From a virus: DNA of 64,000 nt. A model generated the notes under the pieces. That model was given only the letters and a program-made list of their open reading frames with translations, did no database searches and was not told the DNA's origin. Positions 3,350-57,363 of this stretch are shown piece by piece. The stretch lies in the IMG/VR virus record IMGVR_UViG_3300029812_000193. The stretch is one strand, 5' to 3'. The position numbers and the translations under genes are program-made. Positions within the stretch are counted from its first letter, which is position 1. The number at the start of each line of letters is the position of its first letter.

Positions 3350-3483
3350 TTCACCCACCTGTGATAATTTTTTCTGTGGAGGGTGCACATAGCACACGCC
3401 CATTTTCACCCACGTGTGAGAAAAACAATTGCAATTTTTGGAGGATTTAACGATAGGTTTAAATTCCTTCACCCACGTGTGAG
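3350..3483 (+). repeat. Three copies of the 17-bp box TTCRCCCAYSTGTGAKA
   Basis: Copies start at 3350, 3405 and 3468 in a convergent intergenic region. Confidence 0.95.
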
Positions 3484-3549
3484 AATTTGGAGATTTGGGT
3501 AGTGTTTTTTTGGGGCTTTTAGCATCTTCTAGAAGGGGGTTGTGGATAA

Positions 3550-4077
3550 CTACTCCCAATCGAGCTCGTAGGATGCTTTATTCGTCAAAAGGAACGGCTC
3601 AACAAGCTGGTGCAGGAGGACGATTCCCAGCACAAACGTCACTGTGAACGACAGCCAGAATGGGATGCCCATCAAATCAAGCAACTCAAAATCTCCAACG
3701 ATTTGGTCATTATAGGTAAGCTGATAAAGAATATGGATGAGTGGAAAAACGGCGAAATATCCTGCACAGGAACTTACGAACATCTTTTTGTACCTGTCAT
3801 CTTCGAGACGTGCCAAGGCGGTTAGTAAAATAGCAAATATATAGGTCATAATAGTTCCAGCCCAGATGCAGAAAATCATGGCGTTGTTGGATAACGGCTC
3901 CCCTATGTACGTGGTGGATATGGCGGACAACCATCCTTCAGATATTATAAAATCGGTTACCACTTCTTTCCCACAGAGCGTGTATGCGATGATATGCCCC
4001 CCCTCGTGCACGATGGGCATGAGAAGGTCTGCCAGCAGAATCCCACTGAATGCTATGAGTATATCTCTCTTTTGCAT
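3550..4077 (-). CDS. Membrane metalloprotease, M50-like
   Basis: VHEGGH motif after a TM helix, GDF motif later, several TM helices. Confidence 0.6.
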   Translation of the reverse strand: MQKRDILIAFSGILLADLLMPIVHEGGHIIAYTLCGKEVVTDFIISEGWLSAISTTYIGEPLSNNAMIFCIWAGTIMTYIFAILLTALARLEDDRYKKMFVSSCAGYFAVFPLIHILYQLTYNDQIVGDFELLDLMGIPFWLSFTVTFVLGIVLLHQLVEPFLLTNKASYELDWE

Positions 4078-5433
4078 TTTTACACCCTATGCCTCTGTGT
4101 GCATCAGTCCAAGGGGACATCCAGAGGGGGAAGAACTCTCAGGCTGGTGCAATCCGCGACTCCTTTTTTTCCGATGCTATTTCAAATGTTGCCATGTTAT
4201 CATCCTTTACACTTCTCCTCCTAAATATCATAGGCGAGGACAAAAATCCACAAGACTGCCACGAGGACTTTGCTGATGAGCAATGCTGGTAGCATGAGTA
4301 TGAATGCCAAGTGGTCTGGCTTTGAGAAGTGCTTGAGCAGTTGTTTTATGTTCATATTCTATCGCCTCCTAACTACTTCGGTCATTCGCATCTCACAACA
4401 TCTTGCCAGTAAGGAAGTCCTTGAGTGCCCTCCACGGCTCCGTAATCGGTGCGAAGAAGCTCGGAGAGTACGTCAAATCTCTCGCCCTCTTGAGCATCTC
4501 CTTGTGAACCCTCGGTTTCGGTACTTTTACTCTTGTCAACGTCTTTCACCTCCCTATCATTCCTCTCGCAATCCTGGCCGTCGCGTCCCACAAACTCGGA
4601 TAAAGCAGGCACATGAACAGCCAGCATCCTAGAATGGCGACCAACCATCTGAACGGTTGCCCCCTGTAAGCCGTAGCAAAAGCACGTTCTGGGTCAACGC
4701 CCGCCGAGACGAGGGCGTTGTAGCTTTTCATCGGCAGAACCGTTATCGTACAGAACGTAACGGTTGCGATTCCGACTGTTGCAATGATTGCCTTCACGAG
4801 CTGGTACATTATTTTGCTCTCCTTACCTTTCTAACTACTATATTCTCCTATCATTGCACCCCAGAAGTATCAAAGTCGGAACGCACAGGGACACGAAGCC
4901 AGCCACGACCAGGTCCACCCTGTCCAGAACGCTCCCACCAATCACTATGCCGTACGCGATGGCGAACATCAGCAGGACGGGGGCTGCCCCCGCACTGTTT
5001 ATCCGTGCCTCGAGCATTTCGAGCTCGTTCATTTCCACACCATCTTGATTATCGCGATTAGCGTAATCAGGAGCACCGCCAGTAGGATGGCTAGGCTAAT
5101 CCAGTCCTCTGGTTTGATTTCTCTTTTCTCCATTTTCATCACCGACTTGCAGGCACCTTTTTTACCCCGAATGCCCGTCTGCTTGACATGGTTTTTTTAA
5201 AACCACGGACACAAGAGATGTAGGAAGGCCCTATCTGCTCGGCTTCTACGGCTCTGGATTTGCCTTTGACATTATCTTATTGTAGCAGGGCACACAGACG
5301 TGGTACTTCTCGACATCGTGCCCCTCTGGGGGGCTGAGCAAAATCGCACCCATGTGCTTCAGCTCGCTTCGCAGTTCTTTACCAGTTTCATGTCGCATAT
5401 TGGTTTTATTGCCATATTCTACCTCCTTTTATT

Positions 5434-6696
5434 TTATAATCTTGACATCCTCGCACCCAGATGCTGCATATCATCAACAAAGCCTGGGTAGGACTTGGAT
5501 ATATGCTCCCTGCCCTCAACTGTTAATTCACCCGCCTTCAGTCCTATCAATGATAATGCCATCGCTATTCTGTGGTCTCCGTGTGAATTTACCGTTACGC
5601 CTGTTCTCGGCTTTGAGTTTTTGACTATAATCTCGTCTATCTTAGACTCAACGTCCACGTCCAACTTACGGAGTTCGTTGGTTAGAGTGTAGATTCTATC
5701 GCTTTCCTTGTATCTAAGGTGGGCGATATCGTAAATCCTAGTCGTACCCTTTGCGAACGCACCCAGCACAGCCAATACTGGGACCAAGTCGGGAGTTTCA
5801 CGACAGTTGACTTCTATACCCTCCAATTCAAACGGTCCACTGATGTGCACAGCATCCCCTGTCTTTTCGATGTCCGCCCCCATCGACCTCAATATGTCAA
5901 TTATCTTCTTATCACCCTGTTTATCGTCAACTAGGTCCGTTATAGTCACGTCAGACTCGACCAGACACGCTGCCGCCATTAAAAATGCCGCCGATGAATA
6001 GTCTCCGTGGATTGCATAGTCTAGACTCTTGAACTTCTGCTGACCCTGAACGAAAAATAGATTCTCACTATGACCTATGGTTATTCCCGCTTTTTCGAGA
6101 ACGTCCAGAGTCATCTCCACATACGGTTTTGAGACAAGCTCTCCCCTTACCTTGATTATGCTGTCATTTTTAGCACTAGGACAGGTCATCAATAAGGATG
6201 AAATGAATTGAGAGCTAATTGAACCGTCAACTGTAGTTGTTCCCCCTCTAAGCATGCCCCACGTTGTTATCGATGACACAGTATATGGACAAAATGACGC
6301 ACCCCCACCCAAATCTCTGATTGCTCTTATCAACGGACTGACAGGGCGCTCTCGTAGCGCGTCCCCGATGAGGATAACGTTACCCCCAGTCAAACACACC
6401 AACGGCAGTGCGAATCGTAACGAAGCCCCAGATTCACCAAGATTGATTTCATCGGATGGTGCTTTTGGTCTGCCCCTAAAGCCGTCAATGTTCAGAGTGT
6501 CGCCGTCTCTCATCGTAGCACCCAGCATCTCACAGGCCCTTATAGTCATTCTGGCATCGTCGCAATTAGATACGTTTGAGATTTGAGAATTTCCATTCAT
6601 GCTCGCAACAATCACTGCCCTGTGGGTATATGACTTGGACGGCGGGGCTCTTATCTTTCCTTCTAGCCTTTTCGTTCTTTTTATGAGTAACTTCAT
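5434..6696 (-). CDS. aroA: 3-phosphoshikimate 1-carboxyvinyltransferase (EPSP synthase)
   Basis: Motifs PPSKSYTHRA, LGESGASLRF, LRERP, SSQFISSLL, SKPYVEMT, GDYSSAAF, PDLVP, LRYKESDR, HGDHRIAM, KSYPGF; start revised to ATG 6696 (ATGA overlap). Confidence 0.93.
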   Translation of the reverse strand: MKLLIKRTKRLEGKIRAPPSKSYTHRAVIVASMNGNSQISNVSNCDDARMTIRACEMLGATMRDGDTLNIDGFRGRPKAPSDEINLGESGASLRFALPLVCLTGGNVILIGDALRERPVSPLIRAIRDLGGGASFCPYTVSSITTWGMLRGGTTTVDGSISSQFISSLLMTCPSAKNDSIIKVRGELVSKPYVEMTLDVLEKAGITIGHSENLFFVQGQQKFKSLDYAIHGDYSSAAFLMAAACLVESDVTITDLVDDKQGDKKIIDILRSMGADIEKTGDAVHISGPFELEGIEVNCRETPDLVPVLAVLGAFAKGTTRIYDIAHLRYKESDRIYTLTNELRKLDVDVESKIDEIIVKNSKPRTGVTVNSHGDHRIAMALSLIGLKAGELTVEGREHISKSYPGFVDDMQHLGARMSRL

Positions 6697-7349
6697 TCTA
6701 TCATATCCTTGATTTCCTCCCAATACACGTTCCTCCATATTCTCTTAATCAAGTTCATCCTACTGATAGCGTCATCGCTGTTCGAGTGCGGCAGCAGCAT
6801 ATCGGCCAGCTTAACGCACCCGTGCTTAGTGCACACATTCAGCACCAGCACGTCCCTGGTCAGCTTGTTCGAGAACAGGGGGTAATTCTCCTTGTGATGC
6901 ACCCTCATTCTTGCGTTGATGCCCATCGTGGCTAGGGCTTCCTGAGCCTGTTTCAATATCTCGTCCTTGTTCGAGAAGACCTGCCACCAGCACTGGAAGT
7001 GTATATTATCGCTGTGTTTCATGACAAACCACGTTCTATGTCTGTCGCAGAAGCCAGCCAGAAACGACATAAAGTAGCCGTCGTGGTCGCATATCCACTG
7101 CGGTATGTTATCGAGTGGTTTCAATAGGAATCCGAAGGGGCGGTCTAAGTATGTGTATATGAAAGGTTCGCTTACGTCCCTTGTGCCGTGCCTGCACTCG
7201 CCGTACATCTCGAAGACCTTTTTGAACAGCGCCTCGTCCGAGCCGTTCGTGATGCCCATCTCTACCCTGATTCTCCCACTTCTGCATACGCCCAGGTGGG
7301 CCGCCCTCATGCCCAGCAGGTACGCCTTTTCGCGTCCAGACAGTTTCAT
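6693..7349 (-). CDS. Degenerate LAGLIDADG homing endonuclease-like protein
   Basis: KAYLLGMRAAHLG and FLAGFCDRH resemble the two LAGLIDADG helices, with catalytic residues altered. Confidence 0.55.
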   Translation of the reverse strand: MKLSGREKAYLLGMRAAHLGVCRSGRIRVEMGITNGSDEALFKKVFEMYGECRHGTRDVSEPFIYTYLDRPFGFLLKPLDNIPQWICDHDGYFMSFLAGFCDRHRTWFVMKHSDNIHFQCWWQVFSNKDEILKQAQEALATMGINARMRVHHKENYPLFSNKLTRDVLVLNVCTKHGCVKLADMLLPHSNSDDAISRMNLIKRIWRNVYWEEIKDMIE

Positions 7350-15996: not shown

Positions 15997-16873
15997 CTGT
16001 ATATCACTCCTATTTCATTCAAATAACATATGGATTGTAGGCATATATAATCTTTTCGTATGTTTTGTGGGTGTTTTGTAATTGCCATACAAAAAACATC
16101 TATACAACATCTATTAGAGAGGGTGTAAAATCATCTAGAACTTGAAACATCAATCTGACTGGTTAATGAATGACCGATGTTAATAGTTACAACATCTAAC
16201 TAGGATGCACTTGTATGTTAAATGAATGGCTGAAAAATCATAGGCAGCTTAAAAAGTGAAAAAATATTCCACACTCATACAGAATAAGTGGGCCAATACG
16301 TGTAAACCCCTTCTTGAAGGCATATGTTGTCCTGAAGAACAACATTTTGAACGAAAAGCAGGGAGTTTGACCTAACAAAATGGCACAAACGACATTTTGT
16401 GTCATATCTTTGGAAAAAATTGTGGATACATTTCCAAGGAATAAAAAAGAAGAACAAAAACAGAGATAAATACCATTAGTACCTTTGCAGGATTGTATGC
16501 TATGATAAGCATAAAAAGGCTAGCTATAACCCATATAACTAATACATAAAGTATGCCCTTCTTTGTGTTTTCTTCCATGGTCCTCTTGTTAAAACAAGTG
16601 TGCCTTTTATTTAATAAAGCTTTTCGCTATTAAAATTTCCCTTAATAAGCCAGAGAAATGGTCGTGGGGCTTTCCACAAAGAACGTTGCCATATGCCGCT
16701 CTCTATGTAGTTCGACCCACCGTACACAATAGCAAGCCTACAGTCCTGTGCGGACTTGCCCCGCTCCATCACTGCTATGGCTATATTTAAAACTTTCCAC
16801 GATTTGTTTGCTTAAAGGATTTGCTTTAACGATTTCCTTAACGCCCTTCTTTAAACCATTTCTTTAATGTTTT

Positions 16874-17106
16874 CTCACACATGGGTGAAGGCCATCTCAT
16901 ACTCAGAATACCACCACGTATTTCCACCAATTTCTCACAGGTGGGCGAATGAATCTTCTTGGAGCCGTCGAATAAAACACGTAGCATCGACCTTGCTGAA
17001 GACAGTTAAAATATAGGGACCTAGGTATGAACTACAACCCTCATCTATTGGTTCGCCTGATGAAGTTAAAAAACTAGTTAGGTAATCCTTATCACACGTG
17101 GGCGAA
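16874..17106 (-). repeat. Three copies of the 17-bp box in reverse orientation
   Basis: At 16874, 16934 and 17091. Confidence 0.95.
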
Positions 17107-17220
17107 ATCTGGGGTTTTTCTTTTTTGTTTTTGCGTGTTTTTGCATAGCTCCGCTTCACCTGTATTTTTGATAAAATTCACTAAAAGGAAAACGAAAAGT
17201 CGCAGAATAGTATCATTGCA

Positions 17221-21056: not shown

Positions 21057-21663
21057 ATGCCACTTCCAACGTGTCATACATCAAGCAGATGTACGTTCTT
21101 TGTTCACTGCCCGTCAATCTATTCCACCACGCCGTTGCCTCAACTATGTCCGCCATCTCACGCCCTACCTTCGAGTTTTGCGTCTTTATAGAGTTCTGGA
21201 TAATTGGCCCTTCTGACTGCCTCTCTTAAGCTTATCCCGCCTCTCATTTTCAAATCTTCAATACGTCTTTTACGTCTCTCCTCTTGAACCTTGAGTATAT
21301 TTTCTATTTCGTCAGCCATCTACTTCACCTTCCAGTTCCTGTTTTTACAGCTTGGACACTCCTTCGGGTTGCCCTTGCGAGAATCCCATGAATATCCACA
21401 TTTTTTGCATTTCTGCTTCATAGTAATCATAATCATAATAGTCGCAACCCAATATAAATGTTTGGAATGGGGAACTGGTTGTACATGGCTTGTTCTCTAT
21501 TCACCCACGTGTGAGAAATCGGCTAATACACAACCAAACAATTGCAACGATGTCCCTTCCTGTGGCCACGCCTAACGTTGAAGCAGCGGCCCTTGTGTTT
21601 GTTGTGAATCTCGTCCAGAGTAAGCGTTTTCTGATACTTCCTGCAGTAGAATGTCATGATGGC

Positions 21664-22800: not shown

Positions 22801-22957
22801 ATCCCTATAAAGACATCTTTATTATCGTATTTAAGCGTATCACGAAAAAACGCCAAATTTACAGCATAACCCTCTCAGTTACGACAAAGCCGTTTGAAAG
22901 AAGCCAGCAGGATGCTCTATTCGGGCTGTAAGAGGCATAATTTGAGCGTGTAGCACC

Positions 22958-23107: not shown

Positions 23108-23450
23108 AATCCCTCCTACACTTAATCAATATACCTACTAGCCCTTGTTGACTTATTATCAACTTTTCTCACCCTTTATTTGTATCACTCACTTCTTCTT
23201 ATAATTATCCTTCACCCACGTGTGACATGTCATCTTCCGATGTACTTTTTCCTTATCTTAGACTCCTGACGGCTGAAGTAGCCCATGCTGATGAGAAGGC
23301 ACCCAATGCCACCCAGCAGTGCGATGCTGCACCAGAAGGATGGAAACAGCAGGATGACCGAAATGGCGATTGCTACTGCAATCGTCATCGTGCTTATGGT
23401 GTTCCTCCTGTCGTTTTCCTCAAACTCTTTTTCATACCGTTCCTTCAGCG

Positions 23451-34630: not shown

Positions 34631-35183
34631 TTCGCCCATGTGTGAGAATCGGCTAAGGAGATTTGGTTTTCTTTGCCTTTTTCTTTGGCTTATCTGATTC
34701 TACTTTCTTCAACGTTTTCTGGTAGCGTTCCCTCATCTCCTTCTCGTGCTCTTTCCAATGCTTGGCACCGATTTCGACAAGCATCGGCGATAGGCAGGTG
34801 ACTGGGATGTCCGTTTTATAATGTATCAATCTTACGGCTCTATGTAGTTCAGACGATATAACAGTACGCAAGAACCCCATTTTTATCACCAAGTAAACAT
34901 GTGTTTTATTGGTATTAAATGTTTCTGCTGTTTTTGTTGTAGGACGAGAAATCCAGCTCCGTCGGAGCCGATAGTTCACCCACGTGTGAGAAAGAACTGA
35001 AAAAAGCTGAGCTAAAGAAGAGTACTTCCGCTTCTTCTTGAAAAAACCCAATAGCAGTGAGGGTGTCAAGATAAGGAGGAGAGATACACGTTCTCCCCGC
35101 TTACTATTCGCCCACCTGTGAGAAACAAGAGAAGGACGAAGAAGATAGCGACCCTGTTTCCCAGTTTTTCACCCACGTGTCCT
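34631..35183 (+). repeat. 17-bp boxes at 34631, 34975 and 35107, plus a degenerate copy at 35168
   Basis: Direct sequence match. Confidence 0.9.
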
Positions 35184-35539
35184 ATTGGGAAAAGGATAAA
35201 TAGATGTAGTCGATAGTTAAAAATCATGGGGAAAATATATCCGCCCATTGCTCATAGCATCGTAGACCTCAAAGACGTGATAAGGGGAGAAGACCTCAGC
35301 GTTGACTTTTTTGCGAATGAAGCGACGGCGATTGCTATGGAATTGGGGAAAGAGTATTCTGACTTTGGCTACATCAACGAGAAGATACGTCACCTATCAG
35401 AGCTAAGGGTATTAGCGTGTCGGGCAAGCATCAAGGGGAAGAGGAGTATGAAAGTCGGGTTCCCCTCGTATGACGACCCCGAAGTTAAAGACTGCATCAG
35501 AAAACTTGAATAAAGGTAAGTGGAAGTGGAGTAAAAATC

Positions 35540-36000: not shown

Positions 36001-36699
36001 TCAAGATTGGCTCATTTTCTCTACTTGTTTCTTTAATTTGAGCATTGCCTTCAGGTCGAACTCTCTCGGCTTGGATACTGGATATTCGTCGTCCATGTAG
36101 GTCACATTTAGTGGTTTTAGGAGGTCGTAGAAGAACTTGTCACACCACGGCGGAGTCCACGCCCCAGACCTTGCGATGTACGTAAGGAGTACTTGCGTGT
36201 CTTCGATGTAATTCGATAGTTCAGAATATGGAACTTTTTTGAATCTTTTACGTGGACATTTACCAAAATGCTCGCCCCACTCTGGGTACACCCAGATGAA
36301 GTTCCATGTAGTCTTTACTCGATATAGGCACTTCAACCAATTCTGTGCTACGATATCTCTACCATCCCAACAATCGCTATGGGTGTCGAAATTAACCACG
36401 GTGATGTCCTTTGCTTTTATGATGTCGAAGATATTATAAGCAAATATGTGCGATTCACCCACGTATGCGTGATGTGGTTTTAGTCCAATTTCATTCAATT
36501 CGTTCCAGAAGCTCTTATATAGTGGTACTGGTCTGATGTCCAGCAAATCGTGACGGAGCATCCAGAGTTCCTCTATGAAGAACTTGTTTTCCTTATGTCC
36601 GATGTCCGCCAAAGTAAGTTTATTATCGAAGAAGAAGTCCCAGTCCACCGTCAACAGAACATCCATCGTTTCTTGCCCCCCTATCTTTTCTCTTTCCAA
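36001..36699 (-). CDS. UPF0489/arginase-fold-like protein
   Basis: LTVDWDFF, ESH, VNFDTHSDCW, ARSGAWTPPWCD. Confidence 0.58.
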   Translation of the reverse strand: MEREKIGGQETMDVLLTVDWDFFFDNKLTLADIGHKENKFFIEELWMLRHDLLDIRPVPLYKSFWNELNEIGLKPHHAYVGESHIFAYNIFDIIKAKDITVVNFDTHSDCWDGRDIVAQNWLKCLYRVKTTWNFIWVYPEWGEHFGKCPRKRFKKVPYSELSNYIEDTQVLLTYIARSGAWTPPWCDKFFYDLLKPLNVTYMDDEYPVSKPREFDLKAMLKLKKQVEKMSQS

Positions 36700-37611
36700 C
36701 GAAATTCCAAACCGTGTGTCTTTGCCATTTTGATTATCTCATTGAGTATGTTCTCGCTGTCTGGTCTGTAGCCTGTATCGATGACGATTTCATATCTTGT
36801 CATTTCTTTTTTCACTCCCTTCACAGATTCCATCCATGAAATCGGACACCTCGTTGGCGAACCTTATCGCATCGTCCAACTGCTCAAATGTCTCGGCATC
36901 CTGCACCGTTATCCCGAATGCATCCCCTATCGCACCTTCGAGGTCGCAATCACAGTCAGCTTCTGCCTGCAAGATGTGTTTGGACAGGCGTACCTCGTAT
37001 TTTTTGCCGACCTTTTCAACAATCGTGAGTGGGCACTTCACCTTTGGGTAGTTTGCTATCTCCGTCATATCCCTTCTCTTCACTTTATCCCACGTTCCTT
37101 TTTCAATTTTTCTACATCTATTGCCAAGTCTCTTTGCCATTCAAGGATTTTGATTATTTTATTAATTTTAGTTAAGAAATTTGTTAAGTCTGCATCGATA
37201 CCTGCTGTTAAGGTTTTTATTACCTTATGTTGTCTTTCAACCTCGCCTTTCACTGCTTTAGGCGTTCCATCTAAACTGTCCGCAAGAGAATAAACTCCAC
37301 AATTTGAACAGTTCAATAGAATGATACCGCCTTTACAAGTTGGTTCTCGTATTACGTCAGCGTTCTTGCCACATTTTTCGCATTTCAATTTCTTCATCAA
37401 TTTCGCCCCCGTCTGTAAATCTTTCTTCGCCCATGTGTGAGAAATTGGCTGAATCACAGGCAGTTTCATCTCCTCGTGGAAGCATGGGCTGTCCCGAAGG
37501 ACAACTTATGCAGAACATTTCAAGAGGTGAAAAGCCACGAGGACTGGATGCCACCTGCGATTAGCCTATTTTGTCGCTCCTTTTAACGCCCTCCATTTGA
37601 TTCTACTATTG

Positions 37612-39263: not shown

Positions 39264-39299
39264 ATGTTTAATATGTTTCTTATGTTTATAAAGTTTATG
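39264..39299 (-). promoter_or_regulatory. Promoter cassette copy 1 (TATA box TTTATA)
   Basis: 36 bp identical to the copies at 41667 and 44080; minus strand CATAAACTTTATAAACATAAGAAACATATTAAACAT then GAGGTG and ATG. Confidence 0.85.
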
Positions 39300-39339: not shown

Positions 39340-39551
39340 TTCGCCCACGTGTGATAGATTGTGCCAATAGGAATTTATTATTCTTAGGGGGAATAAGGTG
39401 AACCTCACCCACGTGTGAGAAAAACTGGTATTTGATTCAAAAGTAAATCGGATTTAATTTGAAGTTAAATCCTGCACAAAAATACACTACAAGGTTGATA
39501 CTACCTGTTTTATTCGACGGGTGTAAGAAGACTTCTTCGCCCACGTGTGAG
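39340..39551 (+). repeat. Three 17-bp boxes upstream of promoter cassette 1
   Basis: At 39340, 39404 and 39536. Confidence 0.93.
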
Positions 39552-39796
39552 AAATTGGGCGATGTTTACGCCCACTTAAGCCCTAATTTGTCTATCGTAA
39601 AGGACTTTTCACAATTCTCGCACACAACCGTTTTCTCAATACTGGACACATCATCCCAGTTAAGATTTGAGATTGTGTTTCCCTTTACTTCAGCAGAGCC
39701 AGAACCGTATGTTACGCCACTAACTCTTACTCCACCTTCTATCTCGTTTCCGCAGTTCGGACATTTGACCACTTCTATCACCTCCCCTTCCTGCTT

Positions 39797-41657: not shown

Positions 41658-41706
41658 TCACCTCTAATGTTTAATATGTTTCTTATGTTTATAAAGTTTA
41701 TGGTCA
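41658..41706 (-). promoter_or_regulatory. Promoter cassette copy 2
   Basis: 49 bp identical to 44071-44119. Confidence 0.87.
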
Positions 41707-41753: not shown

Positions 41754-41864
41754 TTCGCCCACGTGTGAGATGCACTACGGCAAAATCAATATTTCACCCA
41801 TGTGTGATATAAATCCTTCAAAATGCCACCCCCGCCGATATGCGATATTTCACCCATGTGTGAT
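41754..41864 (+). repeat. Three 17-bp boxes upstream of promoter cassette 2
   Basis: At 41754, 41793 and 41849. Confidence 0.93.
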
Positions 41865-42053
41865 AAACCATAGATTTTAGCCAGTCAGCATCACCTTATT
41901 AGTCCATCGAAAAATCGGTCAATAACGCCCCTCGTTGGTCTAATAGAGCGTCCTGCTGGCTTTTCCAGAAAGATTGCATCAAAACCTAAGAGTGAAGGCA
42001 TAAAAAATAGAAAAAAAAGAGAGTGGCACGTTTACAACCACACATCCACTCGC

Positions 42054-44070: not shown

Positions 44071-44119
44071 TCACCTCTAATGTTTAATATGTTTCTTATG
44101 TTTATAAAGTTTATGGTCA
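44071..44119 (-). promoter_or_regulatory. Promoter cassette copy 3
   Basis: Identical to 41658-41706. Confidence 0.87.
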
Positions 44120-44172: not shown

Positions 44173-44619
44173 TTCGCCCACCTGTGAGATTTATACGAAA
44201 AATATGAAAAGTGCCATCCTCCCGCCGTCGAAAAAATACGCCAATCCAATAGATGCGAGGTGGTATTTTACATGAACGACGAACCAGCCAAGACGTTTTC
44301 GCCCACCTGTGATAATTAAAAATTGCTTGGAATTTGAAAAGTTCTTAAAATCCCCCTCCGACGAATGGTTTTTCAAAACCTAAACGCAGAGATGTGAGGG
44401 TATGTTATCTTGCAAACGTCTGGTACCCATATAACTTTCGCCCACGTGTGATAGGTCGTTTGGTTGCCACTTAGTTACCAGTTAGTTACCAGTTAATCAC
44501 ATCGGTTTTTCACAAAAATCGCAGAGCGTAAATACTATCCGAGACTTGGGCACTCTGACAAATGTTCCTTCCATCTCCATCAAGCCTCCTCTCGTTCACC
44601 TAATTCGCCCATGTGTGAG
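44173..44619 (+). repeat. Four 17-bp boxes upstream of promoter cassette 3
   Basis: At 44173, 44298, 44437 and 44604. Confidence 0.93.
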
Positions 44620-44645
44620 AAGGGGGCAAGTCCACACGCTTGCCC

Positions 44646-45209
44646 CTATGCAACTTCCCACTTCATCGCTTTGGTTGACCTTCCGATTATCTGCTCGTGG
44701 TCTGCTATCTTTTCTTCCAGAATTTCTATGAAACTCTGTAGTTTGTCGGTGTTTACGTTGAACCTTCCGCAGTCGCCCTTTATCCAGTATATGTCATCGT
44801 TTGACTTCTTGAGCGTCAGGGGGCTTACCGTCCTGCCCTCTTTGTATGCCTTCTCGAAATCTTGTATCCTCTGGCTCAACAGCGTCATGAAGGACATTTC
44901 GAGCATTTCAGCCAAGTCCTTCTCGCTTCTCTCGTATTCAACCACGTCTATGAACGCCTTGTATCCGAGACGCTCATATTCTTCCTTGAACTCCTTTGCC
45001 ACTGCCTGTAGTGTTGGAATTTGGCTCTCGTCTGTTATCAGGTAAACGCTGTCGTCAACGTGGACGCAGTGCTCGGTGTATCGTACCCTGTAGTATAGTC
45101 TCTTTCTCAGGTTCTCAAGTTCCTTGTTGTGTGTGCCATTTCGCCTTTCGCTTGGAACGAGCCAAATAAACAGCCCTGTCTTTATTTTCATTCTTTTCAC
45201 CTCACCCAT
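44646..45209 (-). CDS. Hypothetical protein
   Basis: Operonic with the vWA gene. Confidence 0.55.
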   Translation of the reverse strand: MGEVKRMKIKTGLFIWLVPSERRNGTHNKELENLRKRLYYRVRYTEHCVHVDDSVYLITDESQIPTLQAVAKEFKEEYERLGYKAFIDVVEYERSEKDLAEMLEMSFMTLLSQRIQDFEKAYKEGRTVSPLTLKKSNDDIYWIKGDCGRFNVNTDKLQSFIEILEEKIADHEQIIGRSTKAMKWEVA

Positions 45210-47098
45210 GTTATTCTCTTATAAATCTGGACAAATTTATCTGCCAACTGGGATATGTCCTCAATCTCAGTGTGCGGAACGTTTGGCAGGTCTCTTGAAT
45301 ACCCCAACTTTATGTGTATCACTATTATGCCACTCCTCTTGGCGTTCAAAATCGCCTTCGGTATGTGTTCACGGTCTCCGATAGGCAACTCACACGTGTT
45401 ATGATGACCGTCTGAGACTATTATCATGACCTTCCGCTCAGCACTCGATTTAGATAGCCTGTATGCTGTCTTTTCAATCGAGCAACAGATGTTGGTGCAA
45501 CCACCGTGATAGCAGTTCCCAACCCTGCCCTTGACAACCCTGTCCACGTGCTCGTTGAGGTCTTTTACGAGGAAGTAGTTATCACTGAAGGATGCCAGTA
45601 GCAGTCTATCATCGCCGACAACATCCTTTCCGACTTCTGACAGAACGATGAACGCCTGTATCACTTCTTCCATATCGACTGAACCGCTCACGTCAACCAA
45701 GACTGCCCACGCAACGTCTCGCAGACTTCTCCTTCTCTCGAAGAATAATTTGTCGTCTCTTTGTAAATATTGATTAGCCCAACTGGGATTAAGCAACCCA
45801 CCGCTCTCTACAGTCCTGACCTTCTTTCTCAGTTTCGCTTCCTCAAGTTTTATCCTCTTGAGTTTGTTAATTTGTTCCTCAACCTGTGGTGTCCTGAACC
45901 TCGCATACTCCTCGTAATTTGACTCTGGCACTGTTATCCTGTGCTCGCCGAATTTTGAGAATATGGCATCACGCCTTGCCTTCTCCATAGCCTTGATGAA
46001 CTCCTCAGAGATGTCGATGCCGAACAGTTTCTTTATGTCTATCTTTTCGCCTTCTGTTGCCCCTTTTTCAGCACCGAACTCCGCTATCGCCTTTTGGAGT
46101 TCCTCAGCGTCAATCGAACCCTTGACAAGGATGCCTATAATACCAACATCTTCACCGTAACCGCTCTTTGGATAGTCGCCCTCTTTCGGTTTTGGCAGGT
46201 CGGTCTTATCATAGTCAGACCTGTCGATGTCCTTGAGGTCAGCACCAAGTCCAAGACCGCTTTGCCCACCCTGTCCACCTTGACCGTTGCCATCACCCTG
46301 ACCACTGGCAGACTTGCTATCGTTCTTCTTTCCGCCAGATGCACCACCTTTTCGCCCACGTGTGAGATTACCACGTGTCGGAATCATCTGTGGGTGGGCG
46401 AAGAAGGGTGCTACTATCTCGTATATCCTCTTAGCACGTCCAACGAGGACGTTGAAATCCCATATCAATTCGACTGGCATGTCCTTCGTACCAGTATGCT
46501 CTTTCGCCCCTGTATCAGCACCGTCCAAGATGTCCTTGACGAATAGCAGGCTTTTCTGTGCCCTCTTGGACAGCCTGCCCCAACTCTTGACCTTTCCGAG
46601 TATGGACGCTTGTACGAGGGCGTTCCTATACAGCGTTTCACTGTCCTTTTCGTCATAGGACTGAGAATAAACGTAACTGTATTTCGTCCTCTGTGCGAGG
46701 GCATACGCCTTGTATCGCCTCGTCACAGCGAACTCGACACGCCTGTCCTCTATGATGTTGCCTATCAGGTGCTTTAAGTTGCCCTCTCTTAATTCCTCGT
46801 ATCTATCACTGCCATTATACCAGCCATTCCAACTCTCGGCATCTGGCTTGGTGATGAAATTATGAGCACTCTCATGTGCCACCGTGCTCCTGAATATCCT
46901 GAGTGCGGTAACAGGCATGTCCTTCTCTATAATGCCCTCTATGAACGGTTTTTCCATATTGATAATCCTGAAATTAGTATAGGGATGCTCATCGCTAAGA
47001 ACGATAGGCAAAATATTGTGGGTGAAGAGGGATTGTATCCCCCTTCCCCTCTCTTTTAAAGCCAACTCGTTTATGGTCGCCTTACTCATCGACATCAC
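45197..47098 (-). CDS. vWA-domain protein, partner of the MoxR AAA
   Basis: HESAH, NIIEDRRVE, Gly-rich linker, MIDAS DVSGS, GGCTN, IIVSDG. Confidence 0.87.
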   Translation of the reverse strand: MMSMSKATINELALKERGRGIQSLFTHNILPIVLSDEHPYTNFRIINMEKPFIEGIIEKDMPVTALRIFRSTVAHESAHNFITKPDAESWNGWYNGSDRYEELREGNLKHLIGNIIEDRRVEFAVTRRYKAYALAQRTKYSYVYSQSYDEKDSETLYRNALVQASILGKVKSWGRLSKRAQKSLLFVKDILDGADTGAKEHTGTKDMPVELIWDFNVLVGRAKRIYEIVAPFFAHPQMIPTRGNLTRGRKGGASGGKKNDSKSASGQGDGNGQGGQGGQSGLGLGADLKDIDRSDYDKTDLPKPKEGDYPKSGYGEDVGIIGILVKGSIDAEELQKAIAEFGAEKGATEGEKIDIKKLFGIDISEEFIKAMEKARRDAIFSKFGEHRITVPESNYEEYARFRTPQVEEQINKLKRIKLEEAKLRKKVRTVESGGLLNPSWANQYLQRDDKLFFERRRSLRDVAWAVLVDVSGSVDMEEVIQAFIVLSEVGKDVVGDDRLLLASFSDNYFLVKDLNEHVDRVVKGRVGNCYHGGCTNICCSIEKTAYRLSKSSAERKVMIIVSDGHHNTCELPIGDREHIPKAILNAKRSGIIVIHIKLGYSRDLPNVPHTEIEDISQLADKFVQIYKRITWVR

Positions 47099-48164
47099 CC
47101 TCTATATCGCCTTTTGCGACTTCCACGAGTTCCCTCACAGCGTTCTTTTCATCGTTGAAGAACCTGTTGACTATGCATATCTCAAGAGACTTCTCAGCAC
47201 CCATACCGTTGTCAACGAGGTTTCTGACCAACTGCAACTGCCTCGTGCTCACCGTGTCGTGTATCTCGCCCCTCATGTATGCCTCACGTATCTTGTTTGC
47301 CACTCGTATCAGGTCTCTCGTTGAAGTCTTGCCTACCGAATTTTGAACGGTCAAATGAACGTCCTGTGTGCCATCCACTATCTTTGCCTCGTCCTCTGAG
47401 GGTGCGTAGTCCATGTAGAACACGCTGAACCTGTCCAAGAACGCTATGTTCAAGACCTCAACGCCCATGTATTCTGAGCGTGGTGGGTTGAACGTCAGTG
47501 CGAGGTAACTGTCCTTGCTTCGTGGGATTATTTCGCCCTTGTGTTCCTTCAACGCAAGGTGCTGTCGGAAGTCCAGAACCGCATGTGCCCTCAGCATGAT
47601 GCCACCCCTACACACGTTTGGCTCATCCCACACGAGAACGCCACCGTTCTTAGTCCACTCCGTCAGGATGCCATCTATCCATTCGGCGATTGTTCCTTCT
47701 TTCTCGCTTGGTGCATACTTGCCAACGAGGTCGTAACTGGTCAAGTCCTCAGAACTGGGTATCTCATAGTAGTGCATATTATAGAGTTTCGCTATCACTT
47801 CCATGACCTTGTTCTTGCCAACGCCCTTCTCTCCTACCAGTGCGGTCTGCCCCTGTATCCAGAACACCCTCAGCATTTCCTTGAGGTCGCCATTCCAGTC
47901 ATACCACTCCTTGAGAGCGTCAAGGTTAATGTCGCCTGCCTTGTCCGTGAGCGAAGGGAGAAATATATACTCTCCGTTCCCTATGAGCGTTCCCTTCACG
48001 TCTGCTATCTTTATGACCTTGACCTTTAGGTTTCCTGCCTTCGCTGTCTTGCCCTCTGAGAGTTTGCCAGTCTTGATTAGGTCGTAAACCCCCCTCTCGC
48101 TGTCGATGTCTATGAACGCCTTTGCACCGTCCTTCTTGTGCACTTGCACAAACACTATTTTCAT
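47082..48164 (-). CDS. MoxR/CbbQ-type AAA+ ATPase
   Basis: GEKGVGKN, DLVGK, WIDGIL, GVLVWDEPN, TFNP, AFLDRF, STRQL. Confidence 0.88.
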   Translation of the reverse strand: MKIVFVQVHKKDGAKAFIDIDSERGVYDLIKTGKLSEGKTAKAGNLKVKVIKIADVKGTLIGNGEYIFLPSLTDKAGDINLDALKEWYDWNGDLKEMLRVFWIQGQTALVGEKGVGKNKVMEVIAKLYNMHYYEIPSSEDLTSYDLVGKYAPSEKEGTIAEWIDGILTEWTKNGGVLVWDEPNVCRGGIMLRAHAVLDFRQHLALKEHKGEIIPRSKDSYLALTFNPPRSEYMGVEVLNIAFLDRFSVFYMDYAPSEDEAKIVDGTQDVHLTVQNSVGKTSTRDLIRVANKIREAYMRGEIHDTVSTRQLQLVRNLVDNGMGAEKSLEICIVNRFFNDEKNAVRELVEVAKGDIEGDVDE

Positions 48165-48422: not shown

Positions 48423-48632
48423 TTCACCCATGTGTGATATGCGTATCGTTTAAAGAGTTATTAAGTCAAAGTTTAAAAAAATCGGCATACTGCACACATA
48501 TAGAGCCATTTTTATGCCAATACCCTTAGGGTTTTGCCCCTGAAACACTTATATAATCAAGTCCGTATATAAATAATGGGCAATCTACGAAGGTATGACC
48601 TCTATGATAGCCGATTCTCACACGTGGGCGAA
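48423..48632. repeat. Two 17-bp boxes in opposite orientation in the divergent intergenic region
   Basis: 48423 forward, 48617 reverse. Confidence 0.92.
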
Positions 48633-48922
48633 GGAATTCGAGCCCAGACTCGTAAAAAGCCAAAAATTAGCACTTTTTTTAGGCTGTCAATATCGGCAAA
48701 AAAACTGGAGAAAAGCACAATTGAACGTTGACATTTCTTCTTCTCTCGCCAAAATTTCGCCGAAAATAGCCGACATTAGCCGAATTTAGATTTTAATGAT
48801 TTTTTTGAAGTTTTGAAGTAACGTGGTGCAACGCTTAATCGAAAAGATTTATATGGTTCAAAGTCGCTATTCCTTCCAATCAAACGTTCTCAAGAGAGCG
48901 CCAATCCTTAAAGTGGCTTAGA

Positions 48923-49201
48923 GTGGCTCTGTTAGAGGTCGATATGAAAGTCACAGCTAAACACAAAATCCTGCTTTTTCTCGACAACCACGAGGTTGCA
49001 AATATGGTGGCTATTGCCAGCGAACTCGATTATGACAAGGATTGGGTGATACACGCGCTTTCACAACTAAATAAGAGTGGTTTCGTAAAAAGATTCAAAC
49101 GCGAGCACTCCACCATCAGGGGACGGCAGATTTATTACTACTACCTGACAGAAGCTGGAGAGAAGAAGGTCAAGTATCTCAAAAGGATGGGGGTATCTTG
49201 A
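48923..49201 (+). CDS. Winged-helix transcription regulator
   Basis: KILLFL...IASELDYDKDWVIHALSQLNKSGFV...YYYLTEAG. Confidence 0.78.
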   Translation: MALLEVDMKVTAKHKILLFLDNHEVANMVAIASELDYDKDWVIHALSQLNKSGFVKRFKREHSTIRGRQIYYYYLTEAGEKKVKYLKRMGVS

Positions 49202-54658: not shown

Positions 54659-54826
54659 ATGAGTAAAATTAGTCATCGGAGAGTTCACACGTTCACGCGA
54701 GATGAGTTAATCGGACACGTAAAAGATGGCGATGAAGTTGGAGAGAAAATAACAGAAGTAGAGTTAGAGTTTCTGAGGTCGCTAAAAGAGGGTGTTTTTT
54801 ATGGTGAGCGCACATCAAGACTATGA
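54659..54826 (+). CDS. 55-aa hypothetical protein
   Basis: MSKISHRR...; ATG lies at the IS left boundary. Confidence 0.4.
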   Translation: MSKISHRRVHTFTRDELIGHVKDGDEVGEKITEVELEFLRSLKEGVFYGERTSRL

Positions 54827-55211
54827 GAAACACGTAGGCAAGGAATTTTCAAGGGCTGGCTGGAGTGTCAATAGTGATGTTAGATTAGGGAGACGGCAGA
54901 TAGACCACATCGCAGAGCGCCGCAGGTTATTCAGCAAAGATAAGAGGATGGTCGAGGCGAAGGACTACGCTAATAGAGTTGGAGTGCGAGATGTTGGAGC
55001 GGAGTTTTCAAAGTACCAGGATTTGAAGGATTCGCTGGGCGTCAAAGGTCTGGTTGTTGCATCGCCCGCTGGATTTACGAGGGGCGCAGTGGATTTCGCG
55101 AGGAAACACCCAGATGTCGAGCTGGTTATGGTGGAGCGCCCGAAAAGATGGTGGTGGGCGTGGGTTGCTGTTATGGTGCTCGTTTCCATTGCAATTCTTT
55201 TTTTGGTGTGA
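54792..55211 (+). CDS. Mrr-like restriction endonuclease domain with a C-terminal TM helix
   Basis: YEKHVG, QIDHIA, VEAKDY, VGVRDV, GFTRGA; WWWAWVAVMVLVSIAILFLV tail. Confidence 0.75.
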   Translation: MFFMVSAHQDYEKHVGKEFSRAGWSVNSDVRLGRRQIDHIAERRRLFSKDKRMVEAKDYANRVGVRDVGAEFSKYQDLKDSLGVKGLVVASPAGFTRGAVDFARKHPDVELVMVERPKRWWWAWVAVMVLVSIAILFLV

Positions 55212-55317
55212 GGGTTGCCAACCTAAATACTAGTTCGTCTATTCTTTAAATGCTCAAGAGTCCACCTCTAGAGTAGAGGAGTGGGTCGGCTGAATTGCTT
55301 ACCCTCTCCTCTCAATT

Positions 55318-55333
55318 GTCACAGGTGGGTGAA
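55318..55333 (-). repeat. 17-bp box in reverse orientation upstream of the origin-like region
   Basis: GTCACAGGTGGGTGAA. Confidence 0.9.
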
Positions 55334-55399: not shown

Positions 55400-56100
55400 A
55401 GGCGACTTGATAGTTCTGCATGAGAAGTGAAAGGAGCCCGTAGAGGGGAGATTTGCATGAGAAATCATGTGACAAATATGTCACAAAGGCAATGCTATAG
55501 CATGATGTTCACATTCACGCAACACACACACATGTGACTTCCTATGCAACTCGCGAGAGGGTGGGTATTATATTTTGTAAACCACTCAATAGTTTACAAT
55601 TGAGGAAAGCGATATATAAAGATTTGTTTTACTATATATACTTTTGATATTTATTATATATACTTTACGAAAAACTTATATACTATATACTATATATACT
55701 ATATATACTATATATACTATATATACTATACTATACTATACTATACTAATCATATATTATGTATACCAACCACTACTTTACTCTAGACCTACCCATACAT
55801 TTTCGTTCTGCATGCGAAACCACATGTGTGTGTGGTTGAAAAAGAAAAATCCCTTCGCTATCCTTTGATTACCTACATTTCCACTGGATTCTTAAAAAAT
55901 ATCAGAATGCTTTTATCACAAAACCCCATCGCCATCCTTTGATTTCACTTTTTGCGCATGCAACTTGCGACCCCACACATATGACTTCCTATGCAAAATT
56001 ACTTGAGTTTATGGGCTCGCATGTTGCCGATTTTTTAGTGATTTCTTGCATAGGAAATTTAAAGACCTCAATTCGCTCAATTTCATAAGGTATATATACC
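55400..56100. other. Putative replication origin next to cdc6
   Basis: AT-rich (TATATAC)n core at 55677-55747 flanked by a 14-bp inverted repeat (55523-55536/55821-55834); TGACTTCCTATGCAA boxes at 55535 and 55982, inverted partial copy at 56046. Confidence 0.65.
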
Positions 56101-56101
56101 T

Positions 56102-57331
56102 GTGCTTCCTATGGCTTCCTATGGGAACATGGAACAGACAGAAGACATCATAGAAAAAAGACTCGCATCTACGATTTTTCTGAATAAGAGGACTCTATAC
56201 CACACCTACGTTCCCGAAGTTCTACCGCACAGGCACCAGCAGATAAGCGACATTGTTGACATCCTCGTTGACATTCTCAGGGGGTACCCACCAGCCAACA
56301 TTATGATATACGGCAAACCAGGCACAGGAAAGACAGTCGTTGCCAAGCACGTCAGCGAAGAAATACGCATGGCCGCAAATAAGCGCAAAAAAGAGGCAAA
56401 TATTCACTACATATCATGCGCAGACGCCAACACGACGTTCAAGGTTCTCACGACCATAGCGCGCACGCTGGACATAGGAAAACTGCCCCACAGCACCAGC
56501 GACTACCGTACGACGATAAGGGATGCCGTGCACGAAAAGTCGATTGTAATGATGGTCATCTTGGACGAAGTCGACAAGCTAATCAAGAGGAGTGGCGACG
56601 ACGCCTTGTACTACCTGTCCAGACTCGAAGGCATCTCGCTTATGGGCATCACGAACGACATCAAGATTATGGACTCTTCTATGGTTGGCGCCGACACCAA
56701 AAGCTCACTACTGGAGCGGGAGATAATCTTTCCCCCTTATAATGCGGACCAGTTGAGAGACATACTTGAGCAGCGGGCAGAAATGGCGTTCAAGCAGGGC
56801 ACACTCGAACCATCAACCATTCCCCTGTGCGCGGCATTCGCTGCCAAGGAGCACGGGGACGCGAGAAAGGCACTCGACCTGCTGAGGGTTGCAGGCGAGA
56901 TTGCAGAAAACTCAGGGCACGCCACGGTTACCGAGGAGCACGTCAGGCAGGCAGAGGACAAAATCGAGATGGATAGAGTATCAGCAGTCGTGCGCGACCT
57001 GCCGTTGCACGCCAAGCTCGTCCTTTACGCCATCCTCTTGTGCGACGGTAAGGATACTACCACTGGAAACATATTCAAAATATACAAGCGCACGTGCAAA
57101 CAGATAGGCGAGCACAACCTGACACAGCGCAGTATAACGGACACAATCTCAGAACTCAACACGCTCGGCATCATCAGCGCGGATATGGTGTACAGGGGCA
57201 AGTACGGCAGGACCAGGGAGATTAAGAGCGAGGTTCCAGTTGAACAAACTAAATACAAGCTCCTTGAGGATGACGATTTGAAGCCATTGGCTGGACTGGC
57301 GTTTAACAAGCAGGCCAAGTTGGTAGTGTAG
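56102..57331 (+). CDS. cdc6: Orc1/Cdc6 replication initiator (copy 2)
   Basis: YVPEVLPHR, YGKPGTGKT, ILDEVDKL, GITND, FPPYN, HGDARKALDLL, wHTH GKYGRTREI; the true start may be a later Met. Confidence 0.95.
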   Translation: MLPMASYGNMEQTEDIIEKRLASTIFLNKRTLYHTYVPEVLPHRHQQISDIVDILVDILRGYPPANIMIYGKPGTGKTVVAKHVSEEIRMAANKRKKEANIHYISCADANTTFKVLTTIARTLDIGKLPHSTSDYRTTIRDAVHEKSIVMMVILDEVDKLIKRSGDDALYYLSRLEGISLMGITNDIKIMDSSMVGADTKSSLLEREIIFPPYNADQLRDILEQRAEMAFKQGTLEPSTIPLCAAFAAKEHGDARKALDLLRVAGEIAENSGHATVTEEHVRQAEDKIEMDRVSAVVRDLPLHAKLVLYAILLCDGKDTTTGNIFKIYKRTCKQIGEHNLTQRSITDTISELNTLGIISADMVYRGKYGRTREIKSEVPVEQTKYKLLEDDDLKPLAGLAFNKQAKLVV

Positions 57332-57347
57332 GTGTCATTGCAAAATT

Positions 57348-57363
57348 ATCACACGTGGGCGAA
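57348..57363 (-). repeat. 17-bp box in reverse orientation just after the cdc6 stop
   Basis: ATCACACGTGGGCGAA. Confidence 0.9.

Follow-up and report, generated by a model that had tools for sequence, protein, structure and literature searches.

A polar 17-bp box at gene boundaries of a putative archaeal element is a candidate site of an element-wide operator network

The window analysed here, a stretch of 64,000 nucleotides (nt) from IMG/VR virus record IMGVR_UViG_3300029812_000193, is part of a metagenome contig of 72,451 bp, of which 8.4 kb lie outside it, and we treat it as belonging to an uncultivated element, either extrachromosomal or integrated, of a Methanosarcinia/Methanocellia-like archaeon. 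Dispersed over this element is a short semi-palindromic box that is polar, lies at gene boundaries and promoters, is kept by purifying selection and travels with the gene of a small winged-helix protein. The best overall explanation for these features is an element-wide polar operator network served by one element-encoded DNA-binding protein, to which we assign a probability of roughly 0.4. Judged from sequence, it is probable that the boxes form a protein operator network controlling transcription in some manner; the more specific version, in which the bound protein would act as repressor and roadblock, falls somewhat short of probable.

A pattern search of the window with TTCRCCCAYSTGTGAKA at no more than one mismatch returned 27 strict boxes, against a chance expectation of 0 and no match in any of 100 dinucleotide-preserving shuffles (0 in 100/100). 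Two degenerate copies, at 35168 with two mismatches and at 36454 with three, bring the total to about 29, spread over 54 kb. The box had first been described in a sequence-only reading of this DNA, which gave the forward-strand coordinates exactly, listed both degenerate copies and rightly noted C at the K position in two copies, which are 23211 and 55317, and C as the first base in one, which is 39404. Its reverse copies also exist, but their starts were given one base too high, the true ones being 16873, 16933, 17090, 48616, 55317 and 57347.

Read in gene direction, the box is (T)TMTCACAS·RTGGGYGAA, where the dot marks the dyad centre and the additional 5' T is present in 19 of the 27 copies. 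Alignment of the 27 copies with their flanks revealed that 13 of the 17 positions are invariant and that each of the other four is essentially a choice between two alternatives; the information content of the site is ~30 bits. The edges are sharp, with nearly random sequence beyond them. The box forms an 18-bp imperfect palindrome, TTCTCACAC·GTGGGCGAA, centred at the S·R step, with TTC-N-C-M-CAC as its half-site and seven of nine pairs in dyad symmetry (chance P = 0.0013). Two of the degenerate positions, 8 and 9, are the central bases of this dyad. Such a pattern is typical of DNA-binding proteins, dimeric or with two domains, that make no contact with the centre. The non-symmetric pairs, 3/14 and 5/12, are fixed in all copies, and the box is therefore polar. 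A dimer, or a protein with two DNA-binding domains, would be expected to bind such a site, and the fixed asymmetry would make the resulting complex directional. An additional half-site, GGTGAAC, accompanies three boxes, being in direct orientation 3 nt downstream of box 44604 and of a box in the related contig L130, and inverted directly after box 39404.

The layout of the boxes agrees with what the sequence-only reading had described. Most are intergenic: box 46351, inside a gene with a von Willebrand factor A (vWA) domain, is the sole strict copy of the 27 in a well-supported gene, and the degenerate copy 36454 is genic as well. Pattern search and locus inspection confirmed the clusters of three to four boxes, the three boxes in a convergent zone at 3350–3484 and the two boxes, 55317 and 57347, that bracket the replication origin (ori)/cdc6 unit, and they also confirmed that the orientation is uniform over 21.5–48.4 kb and flips between 48423 and 48616. 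Nearly all genes at 3.5–48.2 kb are on the minus strand. Where the flanking genes are co-oriented (10 loci with 17 boxes), all boxes point with transcription, and at three loci in divergent regions (the 34975–35168 cluster, 48423 and 48616) each box points to the gene that it faces. In a test that combined box asymmetry with orientation, the boxes at all 13 informative loci thus point with the genes, and the same holds in the related contigs L127, L129, L130 and L131. Because the orientation flips at a divergent promoter region and not at the ori-like region at 55.5–56.0 kb, the polarity follows transcription rather than replication.

The boxes stand in a few recurrent settings relative to genes and promoters. 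At 23211, 34631, 21500, 39536, 57347 and 44604, the first box lies 2, 5, 6, 13, 15 and 25 nt, respectively, past a co-oriented stop codon. Four boxes, 34631, 37426, 23211 and 3468, abut TATA-like sequences, lying 3–6 nt upstream of them, whereas box 48616 sits 42–60 nt downstream of elements at 48542–48574 that resemble a TFB recognition element (BRE) and TATA box; box 21500 is followed at ~42 nt by a TATA-like sequence and then by a small zinc-ribbon open reading frame (ORF). Arrays of three to four boxes fill spacers of 300–400 nt upstream of three identical strong promoter cassettes (39264, 41667 and 44080), with the individual boxes 43–400 nt upstream of the cassettes. Two clusters, 3350–3484 and 16873–17106, are placed where transcription units appear to converge, and a relative likewise has a box at the end of a converging unit (L130:1547). 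T-runs found 40–60 nt downstream of several boxes were set aside, as they are not distinguishable from the AT-rich composition of the spacers.

Strict co-orientation with transcription, which has no exception if the promoters lie upstream, would also suit an element that works in RNA, that is, an intercistronic site or a site in a 5'- or 3'-untranslated region at which a small RNA, a ribonuclease or some RNA-binding protein would act. Many boxes are indeed intercistronic, and transitions (G/A and C/U) account for two of the four degenerate positions. However, a dyad with a degenerate centre is a hallmark of DNA recognition by a dimer, and the palindrome leaves no loop for a useful hairpin. The array at 41.8 kb, being ~150 nt beyond a hairpin and T8 terminator and upstream of the next promoter, is probably little transcribed. 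Folding around box 48616 gave no convincing conserved structure (-6.5 kcal/mol), and no Rfam family besides two tRNAs was found. We give an RNA-level role little credence. That the boxes are targets of an RNA-guided, TnpB/TldR-like protein is hardly credible, since the conserved block is unlike the scaffold of an RNA guide and boxes are absent from the 3' flanks of all three TnpB genes (0/3).

Related contigs were reached by exact-protein look-ups, which gave five, and through 90%-identity clusters, which gave one extra, L130; look-ups with other proteins of L131 returned the same contig only. The sequence-only reading had named absence from close relatives as a reason to abandon its idea, and we found the box at orthologous places in L127, L129, L130 and L131. 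L129, an 8.7-kb contig syntenic with 40.7–49.4 kb of the window, carries 11 boxes, of which 10 are orthologous in place and orientation and the extra one lies in a 130-nt insertion, although the box-bearing intergenic DNA is only 71–81% identical to the window. L127 keeps the box downstream of cdc6 as part of a 34-nt stretch that is 94% identical to the window, although the flanks on both sides have diverged. L130 keeps the orthologue of box 37426; the downstream gene is absent there and the box faces the end of a converging gene. L133 and L134, relatives of the 3.5–8 kb region, have no boxes, and the window is likewise boxless in this region.

Thirteen orthologous box pairs allowed us to compare the rates of change within and around the box. 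Only 2 of 169 comparisons differ at the 13 invariant positions, against 12 of 52 at the four degenerate positions (Fisher test versus invariant positions, P = 6e-7) and 207 of 390 in the ungapped 15-nt flanks, a count inflated by indels (Fisher test versus invariant positions, P = 8e-40). Even with this inflation, the contrast between invariant positions and flanks shows strong purifying selection on exactly those box positions that are invariant in the window. A change at an otherwise invariant position is seen in the L129 orthologue of box 46351.

Relatives that are 85–95% identical differ in a mosaic manner, with whole small genes present or absent (35237–37425 in comparison with L130; 41653 and 42705–43113 in comparison with L129), and the breakpoints lie at the edge of a box or beside the identical promoter cassettes, which suggests recombination through short repeats. 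One might go further and regard the boxes themselves as recombination sites or hot spots for the shuffling of gene cassettes, with the box as the cassette boundary. The point at which L130 becomes homologous to the window again coincides exactly with the edge of its 37426-orthologue box; L129 has, besides its 130-nt insert with the extra box, an extra gene behind a cassette; and 16870–16995 is an inverted copy of 39393–39558. Such breakpoints are, however, expected from ordinary homologous recombination at any conserved repeats of 17–50 bp, and no recombinase gene was recognised near the boxes. The orthologous boxes are positionally stable across L129, and this explanation, which we consider very improbable, accounts neither for the polarity nor for the proximity to TATA-like sequences. 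An element resembling repetitive extragenic palindromes or miniature inverted-repeat transposable elements was considered separately and rejected: the conserved unit is only 17–19 bp, its flanks are random and its stem would be too weak.

The sequence-only reading had advised looking for a co-conserved DNA-binding gene, and the winged-helix gene is linked to a box in the window, in L129 and in the distant L131. The last of these is distant indeed, since its winged-helix protein is 45% identical to that of the window and the next protein ~35%. L131 carries exactly one box in 7.7 kb, and its distance to the winged-helix gene downstream is 284 nt, compared with 311 nt in the window. This box matches the motif perfectly and differs from box 48616 by one change, at a degenerate position. 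It stands at the 3' edge of a non-coding block of ~110 nt that contains two BRE/TATA-like elements and is 83% identical to the window, compared with 35–45% for the adjacent proteins.

The winged-helix protein of the window has only sub-threshold Pfam matches (Replic_Relax, PadR, MarR and TrmB), and its fold matches are MarR/ArsR-like with TM scores of 0.81–0.86. A comparison with 1.8 billion cluster representatives yielded no more than two true homologues, and both are encoded ~300 nt downstream of a box. Tentatively, we consider this protein the most likely binder of the boxes, which would then also regulate its own gene. A homodimer prediction scored 0.12 against a mark of 0.42, which weighs neither for nor against binding. 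Other candidate binders are two helix-turn-helix paralogues that resemble sigma-70 region 4 (23451–23660 and 28545–28757), an AbrB/MazE-like protein (15829–15996) and both Cdc6 proteins. The 286-amino-acid protein encoded beside the winged-helix gene gave no usable family or fold match.

To see how far the box extends beyond this lineage, its commonest variant, TTCRCCCACGTGTGAKA, which has a CACGTG core, was used as the query in scans of 185,579 prokaryote species (one genome each), of IMG/VR and of 241 million JGI metagenome records. All matches were single in their stretch (44 stretches in genome contigs, 1 in viral contigs and 78 in metagenome contigs), indicating that no sequenced genome in the scanned collections is enriched in the box. 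With up to two mismatches allowed, the scan loci that were fetched had at most two copies of the degenerate motif, and four of them, on three contigs of archaeal metagenome-assembled genomes (MAGs) and one viral contig, showed no similarity to the window by tblastx. Among the collections scanned, the box is multi-copy only in this element lineage. Searches of genome and viral contigs with the EPSP synthase, Cdc6-2 and vWA proteins gave nothing close, and megablast of 24 kb against phage and plasmid collections gave no match. Queries for sequencing runs, made with 9.9 kb and with a single gene and its boxes, returned no run. With its dyad symmetry, purifying selection, lineage-restricted multi-copy occurrence and winged-helix linkage, the box looks, on sequence grounds, like the dedicated binding site of a sequence-specific protein, as the sequence-only reading had supposed.

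That reading had offered several roles for the site, one of them a centromere or parS-like, genome-organising or packaging signal. The bacterial parS consensus, TGTTNCACGTGAAACA, is a symmetric 16-bp site that clusters near the origin. Like parS, the box is a multi-copy palindrome of ~16–18 bp with CAC·GTG at its centre. It is also element-specific and has a core rich in information, and the weak Pfam matches of the winged-helix protein include PadR and Replic_Relax. Beyond the shared CAC·GTG core, the outer bases of the half-sites differ, and the box, unlike parS, is asymmetric, polar, placed at gene boundaries and dispersed from 3.3 to 57.4 kb. Neither fixed asymmetry nor polarity with transcription is expected of a centromere, and the sites extend over at least 54 kb without clustering. 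The Pfam scans, which covered ~90 ORFs of the window, found no ParA or ParB (ParBc, CbiA), integrase or capsid domain. The parS-like idea of the sequence-only reading thus fares poorly, and we attach very little weight to a role in segregation, condensation or packaging.

The presence of two Orc1/Cdc6 genes raises the possibility that the boxes are dispersed replication sites resembling the origin recognition box (ORB), or promoter sites of an Orc1 paralogue that is not an initiator. Boxes flank cdc6-2, and the downstream one is conserved in L127. In ORBs, a dyad goes together with polar binding and a G-rich part, to which TTC...GTGGG...GAA in the box may be compared; CACACATG is common to the inverted repeats on the ori side and to the box. 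A reported precedent is the Sulfolobus Orc1 paralogue Orc1-2 acting as a global transcription regulator (PMC9738581). However, the euryarchaeal ORB consensus, GTTCCAGTGGAAAC-AAA----GGGGG (PMC1868953), does not match the box, and the repeats flanking the AT-rich ori-like region at 55523–55998 are a different element, CACACAYATGTGACTTCCTATGCAA. The boxes are concentrated neither at this AT-rich unwinding element nor at either cdc6 gene, and the L131 box lies next to the winged-helix gene with no cdc6 within the 7.7 kb of that contig. An Orc1/Cdc6 role for the boxes is accordingly improbable. Identity of the box with the ORB was also tried directly and rejected, as a scan with GTTCCAGTGGAAAC at up to three mismatches gave scattered weak matches, none of them at a box.

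The ori-like region itself, upstream of cdc6-2, has inverted repeats CACACACACATGTGACTTCCTATGCAA that flank 9-bp AT-rich tandem repeats at 55610–55760, and a third copy of the repeat at 55971–55998. A similar 16-nt AT-rich tandem repeat is found at L133:1100–1160, upstream of a gene for a protein of 404 amino acids. L127 has an HNH/Cdc6-winged-helix gene between cdc6 and the box, which the window is without.

Among the roles that the sequence-only reading had offered, that of a master regulator fits best, as the boxes follow the polarity of transcription, sit at gene boundaries and promoters and flip at a divergent promoter region. Since RNA polymerase would meet all sites in one and the same orientation, we think that the bound protein is mainly negative. 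Where a box abuts or follows BRE/TATA elements (34631, 37426, 23211 and 48616), it would act as an operator and hinder initiation or early elongation. Between transcription units and at their ends, it would act as a polar roadblock or insulator, a "stoperator", that stops read-through; this would be the function of the boxes 2–25 nt past stop codons, of the inter-operon arrays and of the boxes in convergent zones. The remark in the sequence-only reading that a simple promoter operator leaves the convergent-zone boxes unexplained was a fair one, and the polar operator and roadblock model would resolve it.

Several points weigh against this proposal. The three strongest promoters have their arrays of three to four boxes on the upstream and not the downstream side, and a roadblock there would insulate the promoters from upstream transcription but would not silence them, a geometry that also fits an activator. 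Boxes 34975–35168 have no co-oriented unit upstream of them, and a roadblock at the 41.8-kb array would be superfluous, since what looks like a good intrinsic terminator precedes it. Between the window and L131, the winged-helix protein conserves only its wing (KREHS...IY.YYLT) and C-terminal part and differs greatly in the presumed recognition helix, whereas the box is identical, which weakens the case for this protein as the reader of the 17 bp. Finally, we know of no description of protein roadblock termination for archaeal RNA polymerase.

The main rival keeps the network but makes it positive or dual. The boxes would then be upstream activating sites, with activation from upstream of BRE/TATA and repression from downstream, which is how TrmBL1 works at the Thermococcales glycolytic motif (TGM), TATCAC-N5-GTGATA (PMC4706686). 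Such a scheme suits the arrays in front of the three cassettes better than a roadblock does, and it would also accommodate the four boxes just upstream of TATA-like sequences and the 34975–35168 boxes, which stand upstream of a gene. The TGM is, moreover, a palindromic site of 17–19 bp for an archaeal winged-helix regulator, with half-sites TATCAC/GTGATA resembling TATCAC...GTGA in the box (PMC4706686). On the other hand, no gene follows the convergent-zone boxes (3350–3484 and L130:1547), and neither these nor the many boxes directly past stop codons are explained by activation. The distance to the TATA sequence of the cassettes is variable and unphased, and a symmetric activator would have no need of strict polarity. 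We regard a positive or dual role as unlikely, and the polar operator network with a mainly negative protein remains our preferred reading. Each of the remaining alternatives (an RNA-level motif, Orc1/Cdc6 binding, a centromere, recombination sites and RNA-guided targets) disagrees with one or more of the features tested.

Known archaeal operators were also compared with the box as such. It is not a TGM, having TCAC-N6-GTGA in place of N5 and TTCRCC as its other half (TMTCAC-ASRTG-GGYGAA), and the winged-helix protein, of 85 amino acids, was rejected as a member of the TrmB family (PF01978), its match (E = 0.002) scoring 18.3 bits where the cut-off is 25.6. Further differences are that the TGM is not reported to be polar and belongs to a chromosomal sugar regulon, and that TrmBL1 has a sugar-sensing domain. 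The MsvR operators of methanogens, TTCGN7-9CGAA, are bound by a dimeric winged-helix regulator (PMC3729527), and the box shares with them an inverted repeat with ends of the TTCG...CGAA type. An MsvR operator was nevertheless rejected: the box has TTCT-N10-CGAA (TTCR-N10-AGAA on the other strand; TTCK-N10-CGAA as the general spacing), and its highly conserved inner bases have no counterpart in the MsvR motif. Nor was a V4R or MsvR-like protein found.

The closest known analogue of the proposed network, by analogy and not by membership, would be the operator/stoperator system of Cluster A mycobacteriophages. In these phages, 20–30 asymmetric sites for the repressor are scattered over the genome and follow the direction of transcription; some are promoter operators and most are stoperators that block elongation (L5 and Bxb1; repressor gp71) (PMC6550527). 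The element resembles them in having tens of near-identical asymmetric sites dispersed element-wide (27 + 2 in the window, 11 in the 8.7 kb of L129), which are polar with the genes, with many in short intergenic spaces, few in promoters and a motif specific to the lineage. The Cluster A sites are 13 bp long with no binding cooperativity reported (PMC6550527), in contrast to the box of 17–18 bp with its clear dyad. The arrays of three to four sites upstream of strong promoters and the archaeal host with its TBP/TFB-dependent RNA polymerase also set the element apart. No homology to the phage repressor came to light, although no comparison aimed at gp71 was made. A full-text literature search found no publication that links stoperators with archaea in substance. 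In eukaryotes, Reb1 and TTF-I terminate transcription by roadblock, a functional parallel of the proposed archaeal stoperator.

The coordinates of the boxes, the promoter cassettes, the conserved block and the winged-helix gene are collected in Table 1.

Table 1. Boxes and associated features of the window. The strand of a box is the one on which it reads in gene direction.
Feature	Coordinates	Strand	Remarks
Box	3350..3366	-	TATCACAGGTGGGTGAA on minus strand; last of three in convergent zone after gene 3550-4077(-)
Box	3405..3421	-	Convergent zone
Box	3468..3484	-	65 nt past stop of gene 3550-4077(-)
Box	16873..16889	+	16.9-kb cluster
Box	16933..16949	+	16.9-kb cluster
Box	17090..17106	+	T-rich run 17110-17145 directly after, + strand
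Box	21500..21516	-	6 nt past stop of ORF 21523-21657(-); AGCCGAT 5' extension
Box	23211..23227	-	2 nt past stop of gene 23230-23454(-); TATA-like sequence 3 nt downstream; next start codon at 103 nt
Box	34631..34647	-	5 nt past stop of gene 34653-34880(-); abuts TATA-like sequence; next ATG at 28 nt; AGCCGAT extension
Box	34975..34991	-	94 nt upstream of gene 34653-34880(-); divergent region
Box	35107..35123	-	Divergent region 34881-35225
Degenerate box, 2 mismatches	35168..35184	-	
Degenerate box, 3 mismatches	36454..36470	-	Within gene 36001-36561(-); function doubtful
Box	37426..37442	-	Abuts TATA-like sequence; 28 nt before ATG of zinc-ribbon gene 37080-37397(-)
Box	39340..39356	-	Nearest to cassette 39264-39296, ~43 nt off; 86 nt from ATG at 39253
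Box, 1 mismatch	39404..39420	-	39.4-kb array
Box	39536..39552	-	13 nt past stop of ORF 39566-39772(-)
Box	41754..41770	-	Nearest to cassette 41667-41699
Box	41793..41809	-	41.8-kb array; L129 orthologue identical
Box	41849..41865	-	First of 41.8-kb array; ~150 nt beyond hairpin + T8 terminator 42010-42049
Box	44173..44189	-	Nearest to cassette 44080-44112
Box	44298..44314	-	44-kb array
Box	44437..44453	-	44-kb array
Box	44604..44620	-	Directly after hairpin 3' of gene 44646-45191(-), 25 nt from stop; then GGTGAAC half-site
Box	46351..46367	-	Inside vWA gene 45197-47098(-), same direction as gene
Box	48423..48439	-	Left in divergent control region; 258 nt upstream of MoxR-type ATPase gene 47082-48164(-)
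Box	48616..48632	+	Right in control region; 311 nt upstream of winged-helix gene
Box, 1 mismatch	55317..55333	+	105 nt past Mrr-like gene 54801-55211(+), before ori-like region
Box	57347..57363	+	15 nt past stop of cdc6-2 56102-57331(+); 69 nt before ORF 57433
Promoter cassette, copy 1	39264..39296	-	AAACTTTATAAACATAAGAAACATATTAAACAT, then Shine-Dalgarno sequence and ATG
Promoter cassette, copy 2	41667..41699	-	
Promoter cassette, copy 3	44080..44112	-	
Conserved non-coding block	48529..48638	+	GAAACACTTATATAAT + CCGTATATAAAT, then AGCCGAT, then box at 3' edge
Winged-helix protein, 85 amino acids, MarR/ArsR-like fold	48944..49201	+	Leading candidate binder

Further features were noted around the boxes. 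AGCCGAT stands directly 5' of boxes 21500, 34631 and 48616, with the variant AGCCAAT 5' of box 37426, and AGCCGA(T/A) occurs three times at 48755–48784, where a block shared with L131 precedes the winged-helix gene. At two boxes, the leading TAG of this motif is the stop codon of the upstream gene. The motif may represent another protein-binding site. The genes that immediately follow boxes mostly encode small Cys-rich or zinc-ribbon proteins with CxxC pairs and of no known family (21400–21436, 34408–34602, 37080–37397 and 38648–39253, all on the minus strand). A second conserved non-coding element (AAGCCAGCAGGACGCTCTATTAGACC, GGCGTTATTGACCGATTTTTCGATGG) lies at 41888–41986, with partial copies at 22901–22942 (inverted) and 32262–32290; its identity is ~90% in L129 and 77% in the distant L131 (L131:359–436). 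At 17235–17320 on the minus strand, there is a tRNA-like 3' fragment, consisting of the T-arm and acceptor end, with a weak Rfam match to transfer-messenger RNA (E = 0.009). Its neighbours are the inverted cluster of boxes at 16.9 kb and an AT-rich gap (16.0–16.6 kb), and it may be the remnant of an attachment site or a module junction. Because the 16.9-kb cluster adjoins this fragment, the cluster may mark a module junction.

Most of the ~90 ORFs scanned are without a Pfam family. The matches comprise an EPSP synthase, the two Orc1/Cdc6 proteins, a DUF5131 protein, three TnpB, a radical-SAM protein, a dUTPase-like protein, a MoxR-type ATPase with its vWA partner, an Mrr-like nuclease, an HNH nuclease, a multihaem cytochrome and PGF-CTERM proteins. 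Cdc6-2 has its best named relatives, at ~50% identity, in Methanocellales and Methanoperedenaceae. Methanoperedens has diverse elements that carry TnpB genes and cytochromes (bioRxiv 10.1101/2023.08.02.551345), to none of which the contig of the window could be assigned. The EPSP synthase (5434–6738, minus strand) has its best species-genome matches in bacterial MAGs at 46–48% identity, and it is also encoded in the related L133 and L134 at 85–87% nucleotide identity. A 945-amino-acid protein (9688–12525, minus strand) contains an intein with a LAGLIDADG domain. A TnpB element at 57611–58831 is apparently inserted in a small gene (MPPHMTPDL...) that is intact, with 75 amino acids, in L127 (57433–58984 compared with L127:2059–2286).

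To our knowledge, there is very little knowledge of gene control in archaeal plasmids, viruses and larger extrachromosomal elements. The kind of system proposed here is, as far as we know, described to date only for certain bacteriophages, and an archaeal version with an 18-bp pseudo-palindrome and promoter-proximal arrays would be new. In its fullest form, the proposal would make this the first stoperator system in Archaea, in which one small winged-helix protein and ~30 polar 18-bp sites serve as roadblocks and operators; as a whole, this is somewhat unlikely. All transcription units of the element would then be silenced or insulated against a eukaryote-like RNA polymerase. If the boxes are polar roadblocks, they would be the first case of protein-mediated, orientation-dependent blocking of transcription in Archaea, and the 18-bp site together with the 85-amino-acid protein would be a compact, portable part for archaeal genetics. 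The box can also serve as a handy marker with which to recruit pieces of the lineage from metagenomes. Being rich in information and having a short list of candidate binders, it would open the entire regulatory programme of an element of mostly unknown genes to direct experiment.

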